Assembly (NCBI GenBank): GCA_964600985.1
Contig: CAZRJR010000002.1
Span: forward strand, 40,867-104,866
DNA length: 64,000 nucleotides
Reading direction: 5' to 3'
DNA from: an uncultured Candidatus Saccharibacteria bacterium
GTDB lineage: Bacteria > Patescibacteriota > Saccharimonadia > CAILAD01 > JADZBC01
Part shown: positions 4,982 through 35,949 of the stretch, in pieces
Layout of the letters: each line of letters begins with the position of its first letter
Numbering within the stretch: position 1 is the first letter of the stretch
Notes under the pieces: model-generated
Told to the model about the DNA's origin: nothing
What the model saw: only the letters and a program-made list of their open reading frames with translations
Databases searched by the model: none
Program-made: the position numbers and the translations under genes

Positions 4982-5335
4982 ATGCTCAAATCCATTACTT
5001 CTAAAGTTGGCCTTGGTCTTACCGCCGCCATGCTTACCGCTGGCACCGCTCTTGCCGACAACCCCGATGCTGTAAAGGGCATCCAGCAAGCGCAAGGCAA
5101 CCTAACTGGCCAAGAACTTGGTAGCCAGATTGGCAACATTACCAACCTGATGATCGTAGTTATCGGTATCATCTCGGTAATTATGCTTATCATTGGTGGC
5201 TTCCGATACGTTCTCTCGGGTGGTGACTCCAAGAACACCACGGCGGCTAAGGATACCATCCTCTACGCCATTATTGGTGTGGTAGTAGCCCTCCTCGCCT
5301 ACTCAATCATGGCGTTCGTAATCAAGCAAGTTTAG
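4982..5335 (+). CDS. Pilin-like small secreted membrane protein (TrbC/VirB2-like), paralog 4
   Basis: Strong RBS (AAGGAGAAA). Signal peptide. C-terminal half nearly identical to paralog 5 (GSQIGNITN...IIGGFRYVLSGGDSKNTTAAKDTILYAIIGVVVALLAYSIMAFVIKQV). Confidence 0.65.
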   Translation: MLKSITSKVGLGLTAAMLTAGTALADNPDAVKGIQQAQGNLTGQELGSQIGNITNLMIVVIGIISVIMLIIGGFRYVLSGGDSKNTTAAKDTILYAIIGVVVALLAYSIMAFVIKQV

Positions 5336-5340
5336 TACCT

Positions 5341-5709
5341 ATGCGCATAGGGGCTCGACTAGCTACGCTTAGCTCTACGCTAACACTTGGCTTGTGGGCT
5401 GGTTCACAGCGCGCGTTTGCTGCTACCTGCAACCTTACAGGTGGTGCCGAGGCGGGCGCTGCTTGTACGGGCCAAACTGGTGGCCCAGAGTTGGGTTCCC
5501 AAATCGGCAACATCACCAATGTGCTGATTACCGCTGTTGGCGTAATCTCAATCATTATGATAATTGTTGGCGGGATTCGTTATGTACTCTCGGCCGGTGA
5601 CTCCAAAAACACCACGGCGGCTAAAGACACCATCCTCTACGCCGTTATCGGTGTGGTAGTAGCCCTCCTCGCCTACTCAATCATGGCGTTCGTAGTGAAG
5701 CAGGTTTAA
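5341..5709 (+). CDS. Pilin-like small secreted membrane protein (TrbC/VirB2-like), paralog 5 (recent tandem duplicate of paralog 4)
   Basis: C-terminal about 70 aa are over 85% identical to paralog 4. The N-terminal mature region differs. Confidence 0.65.
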   Translation: MRIGARLATLSSTLTLGLWAGSQRAFAATCNLTGGAEAGAACTGQTGGPELGSQIGNITNVLITAVGVISIIMIIVGGIRYVLSAGDSKNTTAAKDTILYAVIGVVVALLAYSIMAFVVKQV

Positions 5710-7141: not shown

Positions 7142-7244
7142 TCTACTCTTCTCTGCCCGAGCTCCATCCTAATTTATGTTCGTTTTTCCGTCATCCTAAG
7201 TGAAATCGAAAGACCTACCTTTTCATAACCGCTTTGCATGCGCG

Positions 7245-7550
7245 TCATACCGTCATTCCGAGCCCGTCGAGGAATCTGCCTGACAGGTCTTCCGTGTTTG
7301 GGTTTGTACTACGAACCAACTCCATCTTCTTGCTCCGTCGCCAGCCTTTAATTTGCTTCTCTCTAGCTATCGCATCGAGTATGCTCGTTGCCTCTTCAAA
7401 GTAGATTAGCTGATTCACTCTGTATGTTGCAGTAAATCCATCTATCAAGCCTAACTTATGCTCGTATACGCGTCGGGCTAGGTCACTAGTAACTCCTATA
7501 TACAAAGTGCCTGTCTTGCTTGCCAAAATATATACAAACGATCGCTTCAT
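7245..7550 (-). CDS. GIY-YIG nuclease family protein (YhbQ/UPF0213-like)
   Basis: MKRSFVYILASKTGTLYIGVTSDLARRVYEHK is a canonical GIY-YIG N-terminus. Start trimmed to the ATG at 7550. The gene is bracketed by 22-bp inverted repeats (see findings). Confidence 0.75.
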   Translation of the reverse strand: MKRSFVYILASKTGTLYIGVTSDLARRVYEHKLGLIDGFTATYRVNQLIYFEEATSILDAIAREKQIKGWRRSKKMELVRSTNPNTEDLSGRFLDGLGMTV

Positions 7551-7715
7551 TGTTTTAGGATAGTCAAGACTGAACCTGGCGAGCAAGCATAAGGGTGAAT
7601 TTATAAGCATATGAGATTAGAAAGATCCCTCGACGGGCTCGGGATGACGCCATAACATACCGCGGGAGATCTAGAGCAAGTGATCCTCGAATGGCGCGGG
7701 AGCGGCAGGAGAGAA

Positions 7716-18043: not shown

Positions 18044-18120
18044 TGGTGTATCCGGAGGGATTCGAACCCCCGACCCCCAGCACCGCAAGCTGATGCTCTA
18101 TCCAACTGAGCTACGGATAC
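18044..18120 (-). tRNA. tRNA-Arg (anticodon reads GCG)
   Basis: GTATCCG acceptor stem, D-arm GCTCAGTTGGATAGAGC, anticodon stem TCAGC/GCTGG with loop TTGCGGT, T-arm GGGGGTTCGAATCCCTC, encoded CCA. The backbone aligns closely to bacterial tRNA-Arg(ACG), but position 34 is G. Confidence 0.7.
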
Positions 18121-18290: not shown

Positions 18291-18456
18291 GCTGCCTCTA
18301 GATCTGAGTCAGGGCCAGGAATACTTTTGCCTACTTTTGGTATGTTCAAAAGTAGGAGATGGCTTAAAAAAGGGTTTATGCAGACCCTTCGGCTCCGCTC
18401 AGGGTGACGGATGAGTATTCAAGATGACGAAGTAGAACCTTTTAGATTATCTAAAA
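18291..18456 (-). repeat. Decayed copy of the hammerhead-associated element (inverted relative to the copy at 33580-33784)
   Basis: The reverse complement aligns to 33612-33784, including the hairpin CCTACTTTTG-N7-CAAAAGTAGG and GTCACCCTGAGC...CGAAGGGTCTGC. The ribozyme core is mutated (TTAGATA for CTGATGA). Confidence 0.55.
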
Positions 18457-28974: not shown

Positions 28975-29508
28975 GGCAATAATCCCTACCGAATTTCGTA
29001 TAAAGCAAACGTCCCAGTCAAAGTTGACTGGGATTCGGGGTGGGGCCGGGAGCGAGTCCCGACCCCACCGAACTGCGCACCGAGCTAGCCCCGGTGGAAC
29101 CTAGGTGCCGTACGTTGACCTAGGTTGGTCTCACCGCTGTTTCAGGTGAGCATCATCTGGCGCGGCCGTCGGGGCGGTCAGATGATGGTGGAGGCGAGGA
29201 AGACCTGGGTGGCCGCAGCAGCCACCGGGCGACCGCGAGCAGCGGTCGGCACGGTCTTCAGCTCACCCTTCAGCATGGTGCACATGCAGTACCTCCAGGA
29301 GGCGTAGGGCGACTCCGAACGGCGTTCCGTTCGGGCATTACAGCGCTGCAGCACATAGGTGCGGAAGGTGGTTTCGGAACTTCTCTCGGCTACATTCCCG
29401 GTTCAACTCCAGGAGATACAACGTTGGTCAGAACATCTGCTTTACCTTACAGCGTTAGGGTAATTTTGGCTTAGCCTCCGAATTCTGTCAAGGACTCCAT
29501 ACTAATTT

Positions 29509-30906: not shown

Positions 30907-31821
30907 ATGAGCGAGGGTGTACGGGAGAAGATTGAGCAAAAAGTAGAGCAGGCGGTGCTCCGGCTGCTAAGCTACTATGCCGTGTTTGGCCTTGCAGCCA
31001 CCGAGGCCGAAGTGAATAGCTATATCGGTATCAGAGTAGGGCACTTGGCAGTTCGAGACGCCCTGCGAGAGCTCACCGAGGTGGGTAAGCTCTCCCGGGC
31101 CACTGATGGCAGTTACAGGTTGGCTGGCCACACCCACCACAGCAGAGAAACCATGCTGCGCAGGCAAGAGGTGCTGGTGGCTAAGGCCAGGCGATGGGCT
31201 CGTTTGTTTGGCTTACTGCCATTTATTAAATCGGTCGTGGTGGTAAACAGCGCGGCGCTTGGCAATGTAACGGCCGAAAGTGACGTTGACTTGCTGATTG
31301 TGACTAAGCCGAACCGTATATACATTGCCAAAGGCATCCTTATGTATGGGCTTAAGTTCCTACGGCAACTCGAAACTGAGGAGAACAAGGCCGGGCGGTT
31401 TAGCCTAGGCATGTTTGTTACTACTGCTGGAGTGAATTGGCAGCGTGACATAATGGCGGTGAATGATCCGCACTTAGCGTATTGGCTTATGCTGGCGCGT
31501 CCTGTGTATGGCGCTTCGGTATGGCAAAACTTGCTCAAAACCAGTCCTTATTTGCAAGAAGCCTTTCCGAACTACGTATGGCCCAAGGCTCCCAGGCGCA
31601 TCTATAGCGGCGGCCTTACTTGGTTGGATCAGCTCGATAGCAAAGGCTACCGCAAACATCTTAAGCATACTGCAGGACAACCCAAAATGCACACCAAGGA
31701 GGCCTTTGTACGTGTCCGGCCAGATATTTTAAACCTCCATGCGCTCGACCAGAGTGGTAAGATAGCACGCAAATACCAACGCATTTTAGAATCGATCAAA
31801 GTGTCTGTATCCAAAGATTAA
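30907..31821 (+). CDS. Nucleotidyltransferase-domain protein (hypothetical)
   Basis: VVVNSAALGNVTAESDVDLLIV resembles a Pol-beta-type NTase motif. Confidence 0.5.
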   Translation: MSEGVREKIEQKVEQAVLRLLSYYAVFGLAATEAEVNSYIGIRVGHLAVRDALRELTEVGKLSRATDGSYRLAGHTHHSRETMLRRQEVLVAKARRWARLFGLLPFIKSVVVVNSAALGNVTAESDVDLLIVTKPNRIYIAKGILMYGLKFLRQLETEENKAGRFSLGMFVTTAGVNWQRDIMAVNDPHLAYWLMLARPVYGASVWQNLLKTSPYLQEAFPNYVWPKAPRRIYSGGLTWLDQLDSKGYRKHLKHTAGQPKMHTKEAFVRVRPDILNLHALDQSGKIARKYQRILESIKVSVSKD

Positions 31822-31853
31822 GGAACAATCAATTCAGCCTCAAATATTGCCAC

Positions 31854-31968
31854 TTGACAAACTAAAAGTAATGCCCTATAATGGGCCTCAACATTTGAAT
31901 AGCTATAGGTATCGAAACACCCCGCCACGGAGCAAGCCTTAAGGCTCCAGCAAAGCGGGGTTTTTTGT
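31854..31968 (+). ncRNA. Candidate small RNA: consensus sigma-70 promoter (TTGACA-17-TATAAT), about 80-nt transcript, intrinsic terminator
   Basis: -35 at 31854-31859, -10 at 31877-31882, terminator GCGGGG TTTTTT ending at about 31966. No ORF. Confidence 0.4.
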
Positions 31969-32440
31969 CCCAAGAAATGTAAGGCTACAAGTGTCTAGGC
32001 AGAAGCAGTGAGGCTTCTCCTCTCATGTTTAACGGCCGCGCTTAGGATCGCGACCTGACATGAGGGGGCATCCTAGACCTCTCAGGTAACACAACTTCCT
32101 TATTGTTGTGCGTGGCAGCGACGCTCTCGCTGCGCCTAAAGTGACCTACAAGCAGGTCTAACTAGGTAACTACATACTTTAACCCTGGCTTCCGCCGAGT
32201 GGATGATGCTTAATGCACCACATCTGGCTATGGACTGTCACCGTCAAGTTGTGGTTGCTATGCATAGTCACTACTCATTGCTAGTAGTGGGAGTGGTGAA
32301 CTATAAAATCAGAAATTATCTAGGAGCCCCATAGATTCTCTTTGCTTAGGATCGAAGAGCGCAATGGGGCGGAATAATCCTCCGTCATCCCGGCCGAGCG
32401 ACCGATTCGCTTTGTACCTACCAAGGAAAGGGGTGGAGTC

Positions 32441-33490
32441 ATGGGCCGCTTGCCCATCTTCATCTTCGCCGTCGTGTTCATCATCGGTGGCATTGTCATC
32501 AGCAGCATCGCCAAGCGCAAGGCTCGTACGGCCGAGCGCGAGGCAGCTGACGTGCCGGAGGAGTCTGGCGGCTACGGCTACAGCCATGGTGATGCCAAGG
32601 CTCGGCTCCGCCGCGAGGCGGACCAGGCCCACATGGTGGCCGTGGGGGCCAAGGCCGTCGGCCTGGGCTTCGGCCTGATGCTGCTGGCCTACAGCGTGCT
32701 CAGGGTCGTCTCGGCCAACACGGTGGCAATCCCGACCAACTTCGGAGCCATCGGCAAGCCGGTCAACCCGGGCATCCACCTGACTGCACCCTGGACGGAG
32801 TACCACTCCTTCAGCACGCGGATCCAGGAGAGCCAACGACTCAGTGCGACCGACGAGGGCGACAAGACCTCGTCGGACTGCGTCACGGTCGCAGCCAGCG
32901 ACGGCGCAGACGCATGCGTCGATGCCACCATCCGCTTCACGATCGACAAGGGTCGTGCGGACGAGTTGTACCGGCGGTACGGAAGCTTCGATGCCATCAC
33001 CAGCAAGCTGGTTCGCCGCGAGGTGGAATCCGGCCTGAAGGTGGTCTACGGGCAGTACACGCCCGAAGAGGCCAAGAGTGGTGCCAAGTTGGCGACCATC
33101 GAGCGCGACAGCAACGAGGTGCTCAAGAAGCGCCTCGACCGCTACGGCGTCACGGTGGATCGGGTCGTCCTCGGTCGGGTCCAGTTCACGGACCCGGCGG
33201 TGCAGCAACGCATCGACGACAAGATCAAGGCCCGGCAGGAAGCTGAGAAGGCCGTGATCGAGCAGAAGACCGCTCTGACGCGCGCCGAGACCAAGCGGAA
33301 GGAGGCCGAGGTCAACGCCAAGGCCAAGCTCATCAACGCTCAGGCCGAGGCAGATGCCAACGCCAAGCTCGCAGCTTCGCTCACGCCCGAGCTCCTCACC
33401 AAGCTGTACTACGAGGCTCTGGCCAAGGGCGGCAAGGTGATCGTGACCAATGGCGCGCAGGCGCCGGTCATCGTCGACAGCGGCAACTAG
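32441..33490 (+). CDS. SPFH/Band-7 (prohibitin/stomatin-like) domain membrane protein, high-GC
   Basis: N-terminal TM, SPFH-like core (PTNFGAIGKPVNPGIHLTAPW...VDATIRFTIDKGRADELYRRYG), coiled-coil C-terminus. About 66% GC, against about 48% for its neighbours. Confidence 0.7.
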   Translation: MGRLPIFIFAVVFIIGGIVISSIAKRKARTAEREAADVPEESGGYGYSHGDAKARLRREADQAHMVAVGAKAVGLGFGLMLLAYSVLRVVSANTVAIPTNFGAIGKPVNPGIHLTAPWTEYHSFSTRIQESQRLSATDEGDKTSSDCVTVAASDGADACVDATIRFTIDKGRADELYRRYGSFDAITSKLVRREVESGLKVVYGQYTPEEAKSGAKLATIERDSNEVLKKRLDRYGVTVDRVVLGRVQFTDPAVQQRIDDKIKARQEAEKAVIEQKTALTRAETKRKEAEVNAKAKLINAQAEADANAKLAASLTPELLTKLYYEALAKGGKVIVTNGAQAPVIVDSGN

Positions 33491-33579
33491 GCCGCAACAC
33501 AACAAGTAGTTCCTTCGGGGACTACGCAGGCACAGGAGTAAGCCCCACAAACTCCTCACTCCGAGCTTCGGCTCGGGGT

Positions 33580-33636
33580 GGCAACATCAATAACTGAGTA
33601 GTTATTCTGATGAGTCCAAAAGGACGAAATGTTGTA
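33580..33636 (+). ncRNA. Hammerhead ribozyme, type III (self-cleaving)
   Basis: GGCAACA-UC (cleavage after C33588), stem I hairpin AATAACT-GAGT-AGTTATT, CUGAUGA, stem II GUCC-AAAA-GGAC, GAAA, and UGUUGU pairing back to GGCAACA. All conserved core nucleotides are present. Confidence 0.8.
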
Positions 33637-33784
33637 AGTTACTTTCGGCGGTCATACTTTGTCACCTGAGCCAGTCGAAGGGTTTGCCTTAACTCTCTAA
33701 TTCTCCTCAAAACACCTTCCTACTTTTGAATATGCCAAAAGTAGGAAGGTGTATTCCCAGCATGGGACTCACATCTAGGAGCAC
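33637..33784 (+). repeat. Structured sequence downstream of the hammerhead, repeated (inverted, decayed) at 18291-18456
   Basis: Contains the hairpin CCTTCCTACTTTTG-AATATGC-CAAAAGTAGGAAGG. Aligns with the reverse complement of 18291-18456. Confidence 0.55.
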
Positions 33785-33920
33785 CCAATTCCTCATCATA
33801 CAGATATTCGCTCCCACTGCGAGTTTAAAGACTCTCGTGGTTAGCTTATTCTAATGCTTCGAAACTGTTTTTCCTGATGTTCGAATGCTGGATAGGGCAA
33901 GAAGCAAAGAAATCAAGGGC

Positions 33921-33981
33921 TTGACGGGCCCACAGCTACTTTTGTACACTGTACTTAGCACTCAAAGCATTAGAGTGCTAA
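33921..33981 (+). promoter_or_regulatory. groESL promoter (TTGACG-18-TACACT) overlapped by a CIRCE operator TTAGCACTC-N9-GAGTGCTAA (HrcA site)
   Basis: Perfect CIRCE inverted repeat at 33955-33981, immediately upstream of groES. Confidence 0.85.
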
Positions 33982-34033
33982 TGCTTACTAAGAGTAAAGT
34001 TACAGTAATAATACTATCAACAAGGAGGCAGAT

Positions 34034-35949
<1,916 letters not shown>

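Follow-up and report, generated by a model that had tools for sequence, protein, structure and literature searches.

The stretch of DNA analysed here, referred to as the window throughout, comprises 64,000 nucleotides (nt) from an uncultured Candidatus Saccharibacteria bacterium (assembly GCA_964600985.1, contig CAZRJR010000002.1, positions 40,867 to 104,866 of the forward strand). It carries a gene for an SPFH/Band_7 membrane protein that is followed by a structured 3' untranslated region (3'UTR), a type III hammerhead ribozyme as the last element of that region, an inserted repeat, and the groESL operon (Table 1). We found that the ribozyme stays behind the SPFH gene in close relatives while the downstream neighbor changes, and we propose that it may process the 3' end of the SPFH message and insulate the next gene.

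Type I and type III hammerheads have been recognized in bacterial intergenic regions since 2010-2011, often beside small non-conserved open reading frames (ORFs) or phage genes, and their function there is unresolved (PMC6155905). Bacterial hammerheads and twisters have been suggested to process mRNAs and to act in 3'UTRs, and ribozymes in 3'UTRs are reported to change expression (PMC6765202). The glmS ribozyme remains the sole bacterial self-cleaving ribozyme with an established role (PMC6765202, PMC6155905). We found no literature tying hammerheads to Patescibacteria, the candidate phyla radiation, or Saccharibacteria; coverage of the literature was incomplete, and this result is no proof of novelty.

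Results

In the 5' to 3' direction, positions 33580-33636 read GGCAACAUC, AAUAACU-GAGU-AGUUAUU, CUGAUGA, GUCC-AAAA-GGAC, GAAA, and UGUUGU. Stem III is formed by seven pairs between 33581-33587 (GCAACAU) and 33629-33635 (AUGUUGU), including the A15.1-U16.1 pair and a terminal G.U. More specifically, U16.1 is U33587, which pairs with A33629, and the cleavage-site nucleotide C17 is C33588. The nucleotides required of a hammerhead core are all present (C3 U4 G5 A6 N7 G8 A9, G12 A13 A14, A15.1-U16.1, and an H17 that is not G), and the helices at 33581-33635 follow the order III(5')-I-II-III(3'), in which loops cap helices I and II and helix III is left open. The three-way junction is also the minimum-energy structure of the isolated 61-nt RNA (33578-33638). 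The loops of the motif are U-GAGU-A (the stem I closing pair with loop 1) and AAAA (loop 2), and a tertiary contact between them is presumably formed. Cleavage is predicted between 33588 and 33589, after which 33588 would end in a 2',3'-cyclic phosphate and A33589 would start with a 5'-OH.

Table 1. Coordinates of the SPFH gene, its 3'UTR, the hammerhead ribozyme, and the groESL side of the window.
Feature	Coordinates	Strand	Basis or remark
SPFH/Band_7 membrane-protein gene, 349 amino acids	32441..33490	+	Pfam Band_7, E 4.9e-22
Hairpin GCGGC-AACUAG-GCCGC, its loop holding the SPFH stop codon (33488-33490)	33480..33495	+	RNAalifold; kept in 5/5 relatives
3'UTR hairpin H1 (GUAGUUCC-UUCG-GGGACUAC)	33506..33525	+	RNAalifold consensus; sequence varies, pairing kept
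3'UTR hairpin H2 (AGGAGU...ACUCCU)	33534..33556	+	Stem nearly invariant among relatives
3'UTR hairpin H3 (core CCGAGC-UUCG-GCUCGG)	33557..33580	+	Compensatory changes in L034, L322, L325
Type III hammerhead ribozyme, whole motif	33581..33635	+	Sequence, RF00008, leave-out model R2, minimum-energy fold
Stem III 5' strand GCAACAU and C17	33581..33588	+	Sequence; stem III pairs covary in the hammerhead family
Stem I hairpin AAUAACU-GAGU-AGUUAUU	33589..33606	+	33589-33595 with 33600-33606, 7 perfect pairs, 4-nt loop GAGU
Core strand C3-A9, CUGAUGA	33607..33613	+	Sequence; invariant in all orthologues
Stem II hairpin GUCC-AAAA-GGAC	33614..33625	+	33614-33617 with 33622-33625, loop AAAA
Core G12-A13-A14-A15.1 (GAAA, 33626-33629) and stem III 3' strand UGUUGU	33626..33635	+	
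Insertion of about 275 nt between ribozyme and groES promoter	33640..33915	+	Not in L034, L325, L326
groES sigma-70-like promoter TTGACG-18-TACACT	33921-33950	+	Not part of the ribozyme
Controlling inverted repeat of chaperone expression (CIRCE)	33955-33981	+	Not part of the ribozyme
groES	34034-34306		Downstream of the ribozyme
groEL	34306-35949		Downstream of the ribozyme

In a 601-nt search, the Rfam model RF00008 (Hammerhead_3) aligned to the motif over its full length (model positions 1-54) with 42.5 bits and an E-value of 6.3e-8, or roughly 7e-6 when scaled to the whole window. This score is 6 bits short of the gathering cut-off of 48.5 bits, and an Rfam scan of the window at the gathering threshold returned five tRNAs only; the ribozyme emerged solely in E-value mode. 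The shortfall arises because loop 2 is shorter (4 nt) than in the model consensus (about 8 nt), and because the stem I hairpin (7 bp, 4-nt loop) holds extra bases. The Rfam cut-off is a curation convention and not a defining property of hammerheads. We also used a leave-out covariance model, R2, made from 81 other bacterial hammerheads with the window sequence and its nearest relative L034 excluded (loci are given as L numbers), and this model scored the window motif at 70.0 bits (E 4e-19). A second hammerhead was not found in the 64-kb window with a loose pattern and two covariance models run with filters off. The next-best R2 match in the window, 13 bits at 28986-29041 (-), was rejected since it is without the CUGAUGA core.

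The first-pass annotation of this DNA had called a type III hammerhead whose core elements were all present and correctly ordered, beyond chance, and the values above (E 6.3e-8 with Rfam, 70 bits with the leave-out model) bear this out; its element boundaries are right to within one base at each end. It had also offered a covariance-model search as a check, with a score below threshold counting against the call. The RF00008 score does fall below, but it is not a valid refutation, because five sister loci described later also score below the cut-off and the leave-out model gives 70 bits. We hold with high confidence that 33581-33635 is a genuine type III hammerhead, a new example of those known from bacteria.

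Contigs encoding SPFH homologues were fetched and searched with the leave-out model. All four homologues of 69%-96% identity that have enough downstream sequence carry a hammerhead about 80-90 nt past the stop codon, namely L322 (96% identity, about 85 nt), L323 (96%, about 90 nt, with a 35-nt insertion in loop 2), L325 (87%, about 83 nt), and L326 (69%, about 80 nt). The next gene is groES in L325 and L326, an unrelated gene in L323, and in L322 a convergent TrmB-family gene whose stop lies 12 nt from the ribozyme. Since the ribozyme stays after SPFH while the next gene is groES, convergent, or unrelated, it is linked to the SPFH gene. Two SPFH genes with only 26%-27% identity to that of the window (L024 and L104, from Saccharimonadales/Saccharimonadia genomes) are followed by different hammerheads of the same compact family. 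In both loci with 96% SPFH identity, an IS1595-family transposase gene (L322:68-1081 (-) and L323:38-1051 (-)) precedes the SPFH gene at a distance of about 1 kb, and the L322 and L323 contigs diverge from one another right after the hammerhead.

Across the orthologues, 13 core nucleotides are unchanged, while the stems vary in a coordinated manner. Stem II of L325 is GCUC-AAAA-GAGC, a double compensatory change relative to GUCC-AAAA-GGAC in the window. Stem III of the window has one extra A-U pair, added on both strands, when compared with GGCAAC-UC/GAAA-GUUGC in the relatives. The closing pair of stem I is U-A or U.G, and H17 is C or A. Compensatory changes are thus present in stems I, II, and III of orthologues that were found independently, via the SPFH protein, and an invariant core combined with such changes is the signature expected when selection keeps a ribozyme active. 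A score under the Rfam curated cut-off, a stem II of only 4 bp, and two loops of 4 nt each might suggest a chance match or a relic that has decayed and lost its activity, but E-values of 6e-8 (Rfam) and 4e-19 (leave-out model), the intact set of core nucleotides, and compensatory changes in all three stems make this explanation very improbable.

The 3'UTR in front of the ribozyme was analysed by alignment and RNAalifold on five orthologues. It is about 150 nt long and consists of four hairpins with the ribozyme as its last element, and nine predicted pairs show compensatory changes. A conserved ACAACAAG separates the stop-codon hairpin from H1, and H3 abuts stem III of the ribozyme. No terminator-like site was found in 33300-34100 on either strand, and no U-tract follows any hairpin of the + strand. 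Likewise, in the window, L322, L325, and L326, the + strand from the SPFH stop codon to the next gene gave no terminator-like site. On the opposite strand, H1 with the conserved ACAACAA tract scores as terminator-like in L322:3069-3085 (-) and L325:1153-1169 (-) (a hairpin, then UUGUUGUGUU), and it is possible that this site stops convergent transcription; the window copy is weaker and was not flagged.

The SPFH gene itself appears to belong to an accessory unit. In the window it is preceded by a nucleotidyltransferase-like gene (30907-31821), the orthologue of which in L122 (49% identity, E 5e-102) lies directly before groES with a 168-nt spacer (2288-2456), and neither the SPFH gene nor the ribozyme is found between the two. 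This arrangement indicates that window 31822-33640 (1.8 kb, including leader, SPFH gene, 3'UTR, and hammerhead) is an accessory module, the 3' boundary of which coincides with the ribozyme. Upstream of the SPFH gene, a sigma-70 promoter with 12/12 consensus positions (TTGACA-17-TATAAT, 31854-31882 (+)) is followed by a nested hairpin CCCCGC...GCGGGG and a U-run at about 31921-31968 (+). The region 31854-31968 (+) may correspond to a terminated leader or to a small RNA about 80 nt in length; no Rfam family matched 31800-32460.

The groES side of the locus was examined for a link with the ribozyme, which the first-pass annotation had implied by placing it about 330 nt upstream of the groES promoter. 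The ribozyme does lie upstream of this promoter, although the measured distances are 285 nt to the -35 hexamer (33921) and about 320 nt to CIRCE (33955). Among 80 metagenome loci of groES relatives, which are mostly distant (49%-60% identity, with only L121-L125 reasonably close), none carries a hammerhead. One could assume that the ribozyme trims read-through or upstream-initiated groESL transcripts and is kept as a cap-like 5' structure by which chaperonin expression is tuned. In the window, L034, L325, and L326, it has the orientation of groES and directly precedes the groES promoter; L034 retains the block together with groES behind a different upstream gene, and Paceibacteria-type members of the family often have a ribosome-binding site and a start codon within 20-50 nt. 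However, the ribozyme is located upstream of the -35/-10 elements and CIRCE, hence outside the primary groES transcript, the 80 groES-relative loci lack it, and the same ribozyme follows SPFH genes whose next gene is convergent or unrelated. Furthermore, about one third of the genes downstream of the wider family point the other way (among matches listed). We consider such 5'-leader processing unlikely, and the implied link with groESL does not hold.

The distance between the ribozyme and the groES promoter is itself derived. The groES -35 hexamer begins 10-20 nt past the ribozyme in L034, L325, and L326, and therefore window 33640-33915 represents an insertion. In L104, a promoter of rpsB (TTGACT-17-TACACT) begins 8 nt past the ribozyme. 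The insertion holds a hairpin with a 20-bp stem (33709-33755) and a repeated segment of about 110 nt, 33661-33780 (+), which starts about 25 nt past the ribozyme and resembles 18298-18408 (-) in inverted orientation. No hammerhead accompanies the latter copy, which is found upstream of a tRNA gene (18047-18120 (-)). It may be that 33640-33915 is a small dispersed element, similar to a miniature inverted-repeat transposable element, that lands just upstream of promoters. The ribozyme had been said to head a repeated element of about 200 nt; a repeat exists, but it is a separate insertion, its other copy is without a hammerhead, and the relatives lack it.

A dispersed hairpin motif, GTCAYYCYGAGC...GARGRRT, gave five matches (at most one mismatch) against 1.6 expected in the window, with sites including 7252-7263 (+), 7637-7648 (-), 18397-18408 (-), and about 33661 (+). 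Two of the copies (7244-7277 and 7623-7656) lie in inverted orientation to each other at a distance of 345 nt, similar to the ends of a miniature transposable element. Finally, we note a direct repeat of 228 nt with 80% identity at 5107-5334 and 5481-5708, the copies of which are 374 nt apart.

Ribozymes of the same geometry are found in other bacteria. An exact-pattern scan (CTGATGAGTCC-N3-7-GGACGAAA) of one genome per bacterial or archaeal species gave at least 133 matches in at least 120 records; the scan is tied to one stem II sequence, and its counts are not normalized for genome numbers. The figures that follow hold among the matches listed. At least 82 distinct sequences among 133 matches have the exact geometry of the window motif, namely 7 bp in stem I, 4 bp in stem II, a loop of 4 nt on each, and H17 directly after U16.1, in a fixed length of 59 nt. 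In a gapless alignment of 83 members, the proposed structure is 95% paired and reaches a covariation score of 0.76, compared with 0.19 for shuffled alignments and at most 0.12 for slid registers, bearing in mind that the sequences were pre-selected for stem I pairing and that stem II was fixed by the search pattern. Two-sided changes occur in 11 of 13 variable pairs; six of the seven stem I pairs covary, as do stem III pairs. The last stem I pair (column 17) always has U with A or G, the first base of loop 1 (column 18) is nearly always G, and loop 2 is A-rich.

By record titles, 87 of 120 records bear candidate-phyla names, 55 of them of the Saccharibacteria type, and several genomes have three to four or more loci of this hammerhead family. 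The sister hammerheads in L041, L010, L034, L024, and L104 all remain below the RF00008 gathering score (best 38 bits), while a family-specific model gives them 50-77 bits. Given these sub-cut-off scores, routine Rfam annotation would miss such hammerheads and may have overlooked an expansion of the family.

The surroundings of the family were analysed with a crude ORF caller on sequences pre-selected for pairing, and with this limit the upstream gene is co-oriented with the hammerhead in 75 cases and opposite in 20 (z about 5.6; 41 against 9 in a stricter set), whereas the downstream gene is co-oriented in 62 and opposite in 34, with about one third pointing the other way. A downstream ratio of 62 to 34 is about normal for neighboring bacterial genes. 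The hammerhead starts at a median of 67-80 nt past the upstream stop codon. About 47% of family members have a stable hairpin in the 36 nt upstream, and for 28 of 36 such hairpins the gap to stem III is 0-2 nt. In the 120 nt that follow the hammerhead, promoter-like sites are modestly enriched (16 of 76, with 8.8 expected), and nine of them start 12-24 nt past the core GAAA. Pfam matches were obtained for 4 of 41 upstream co-oriented ORFs, two of them SPFH, and none for the other 37; some of these ORF calls are probably spurious. In comparison, 35 downstream ORFs match 43 ordinary Pfam families. A shared family among the upstream genes was considered and rejected, as the genes are heterogeneous and only the SPFH pair of L024 and L104 is related.

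Several other properties of the family were noted. A GUUCUUU motif (sometimes GAUCUUU) occurs 5-25 nt after Paceibacteria-type hammerheads in 25 of the 133 matches listed, including L003, L005, L007, L010, L019, L023, L050, L097, L098, L110, L113, and L118, and is often followed by a ribosome-binding site and a start codon. GUUCUUU is complementary to AAAGGAC (loop 2 with the stem II 3' strand), and an alternative pairing is possible. Dense same-strand arrays are found in L010:3300-6450 (seven family hammerheads) and in L041 (Candidatus Parcubacteria metagenome-assembled genome S40-23, JANLIU010000041.1; 2400-6600), with about 11 hammerheads in 8 kb. The L041 hammerheads flank non-coding units of 214-249 nt alternating with units of about 75 nt; the long units have a common structured core (...AGGUCGGAGC..GCUCCGACAACUUAAGUGCAUUC..GCACUUAAGGCAGUGCUUUCGAAAGAGAGUGCUG...), and each unit terminates in a hairpin abutting the next ribozyme. 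No Rfam family matched the L041 inter-hammerhead units, which could be excised and possibly circularized small RNAs. A scan of viral contigs was saturated by the same stem II pattern. Among the matches listed, most are type I, with stem I open and stem III closed, while about 15% are type III with the window geometry, often preceded by the conserved hairpin GUGUCUUCAAAGACAC; in the IMG/VR contigs L219, L224, L232, L246, L249, L251, and L265, this hairpin stands directly 5' of the type III form.

These arrays raise the question of whether the window ribozyme belongs to a selfish or mobile small-RNA element, in which a hammerhead-bounded unit is excised, perhaps circularized, and spread in the manner of retrozymes and viroid-like RNAs. 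Dense same-strand arrays flanking conserved non-coding units in L041 and L010 are consistent with this, as are the presence or absence of the SPFH module between relatives, the IS1595 transposase about 1 kb away in L322 and L323, and the abundance of the stem II pattern in viral contigs. At the window locus, on the other hand, a single hammerhead is found in 64 kb with no partner ribozyme bounding a unit, and the adjacent repeat is a later insertion whose other copy is without a ribozyme. In addition, the orthologues have diverged (about 75% identity to L034), carry compensatory changes, and keep a fixed position after one gene, which together indicate vertical inheritance under selection. A mobile origin appears quite improbable, and the suggestion of a selfish or processing small RNA is not supported at this locus, where one copy is inherited with the adjacent gene.

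Discussion

Our proposed reading is that of 3'-end processing of the SPFH message by the ribozyme, combined with insulation of the next gene, and we consider it about equally likely to hold or to fail on the sequence comparisons presented here. RNA polymerase transcribing the SPFH gene would meet no intrinsic terminator and would read through the four hairpins and then the ribozyme, which would fold and cut itself after C33588. The 5' product would be the SPFH mRNA, ending in the four hairpins, about 8 nt of tail, and a terminal 2',3'-cyclic phosphate, and such a 3' end should withstand 3' exonucleases. The 3' product would begin with a 5'-OH and the folded ribozyme and would carry the downstream RNA, here the inserted repeat and the groESL operon; in the relative with a convergent next gene, it would carry the antisense of that gene. 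Cleavage would uncouple the downstream RNA from the SPFH message. In this way the ribozyme may form 3' ends and insulate without the help of a protein, in the place of an expected terminator and directly before the next promoter.

Several observations weigh against this proposal. None of the nine loci with SPFH homologues of 28%-53% identity (L327-L335, with various next genes) has a hammerhead after the SPFH gene; the linkage is clade-specific, and the ribozyme is dispensable for the SPFH gene family. L034, whose ribozyme is nearest in sequence to that of the window, has this 3'UTR block and ribozyme before groES and after a non-homologous gene, and hence the block is modular and not strictly SPFH-specific. 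The genome also appears to use ordinary hairpin-plus-U terminators, such as the one at 31921-31968 (read by eye), which means that the ribozyme is not needed for want of an alternative. When a longer stretch of the UTR is folded, ACAACA at 33499-33504 offers an alternative partner for the stem III 3' strand, and the orientation statistics of the family carry the limits given above. Finally, cleavage itself does not halt RNA polymerase, and the term terminator substitute overstates what is shown.

The alternative fold also bears on a different possibility, that the ribozyme is a conditional down-regulator of SPFH, whose cleavage in the 3'UTR would expose the message to decay at a rate set by folding competition or by some factor, similar to reporter experiments in which twister ribozymes were placed in 3'UTRs. 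Ribozymes in 3'UTRs are reported to alter expression (PMC6765202), and sequestration of the stem III 3' strand by 33499-33504 would provide such a competition. Nevertheless, the four conserved hairpins stay on the 5' product, which argues for protection and not for exposure. The alternative pairing is not conserved, as L034 has AUUGC in place of UGUUGU, and no ligand-binding domain is apparent. We regard this role as rather unlikely.

The locus offers an unusually clean natural experiment. The role of bacterial hammerheads has been a question since their discovery, and a ribozyme that is kept, with compensatory changes and no terminator, at the 3' end of one gene while the downstream neighbor changes points to a concrete and testable answer, namely 3'-end formation and insulation. 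As a broader and tentative possibility, more doubtful than probable, one compact type III family may have been expanded in Patescibacteria, above all in Saccharibacteria, and turned into a general device that forms RNA ends without proteins. This device would be placed after accessory genes at the expected terminator site, often abutting a protective hairpin and just before the next promoter, would be arrayed in some genomes to cut out tandem non-coding RNAs, and would have been overlooked by annotation. If this is true, the 5'-OH and cyclic-phosphate ends of the L041 units could be ligated into circles.

The window motif shares an identical core (CUGAUGA, GAAA, A15.1-U16.1, and C17) and an open helix III with the type III hammerheads of RF00008, which include viroid, satellite, plant, and some bacterial examples. 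Compared with that consensus, it falls in a compact bacterial subfamily with a shorter loop 2 (4 nt as opposed to about 8). Hammerheads and twisters found beside small non-conserved ORFs in bacteria and phages (PMC6155905, PMC6765202) are likewise intergenic and co-oriented, and arrays occur in the family described here as well. Those reviews stress type II hammerheads and phage contexts, whereas the partner here is a chromosomal SPFH/Band_7 gene beside groESL, with no phage genes recognized nearby.

Retrozymes and viroid-like circular RNAs are bounded by hammerheads (PMC6155905). These are likewise of type III, and the family members in L041 similarly flank repeated non-coding units. In contrast to such hammerhead-bounded units, the ribozyme of the window stands alone, with no second boundary, and is not contained in a repeated unit.

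A Rho-independent terminator would occupy the same position, past the stop codon and before the next promoter, with GC-rich hairpins and a hairpin-protected 3' end. However, such a terminator requires a hairpin with a U-tract and acts by polymerase release, whereas the window lacks the U-tract and its RNA end would come from cleavage.

RiboJ, a synthetic insulator that combines a type III hammerhead from the satellite RNA of tobacco ringspot virus (sTRSV) with a hairpin (PMC6206723), likewise places a hammerhead and a hairpin between an upstream transcribed region and a gene. Self-cleavage of RiboJ frees the downstream RNA from the preceding sequence, and the window ribozyme may be likened to it in this respect. 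The two differ in that RiboJ is an engineered part located past the promoter, with the hairpin on the 3' side of its ribozyme, whereas the window ribozyme is natural, precedes the next promoter, and is flanked 5' by its hairpins.

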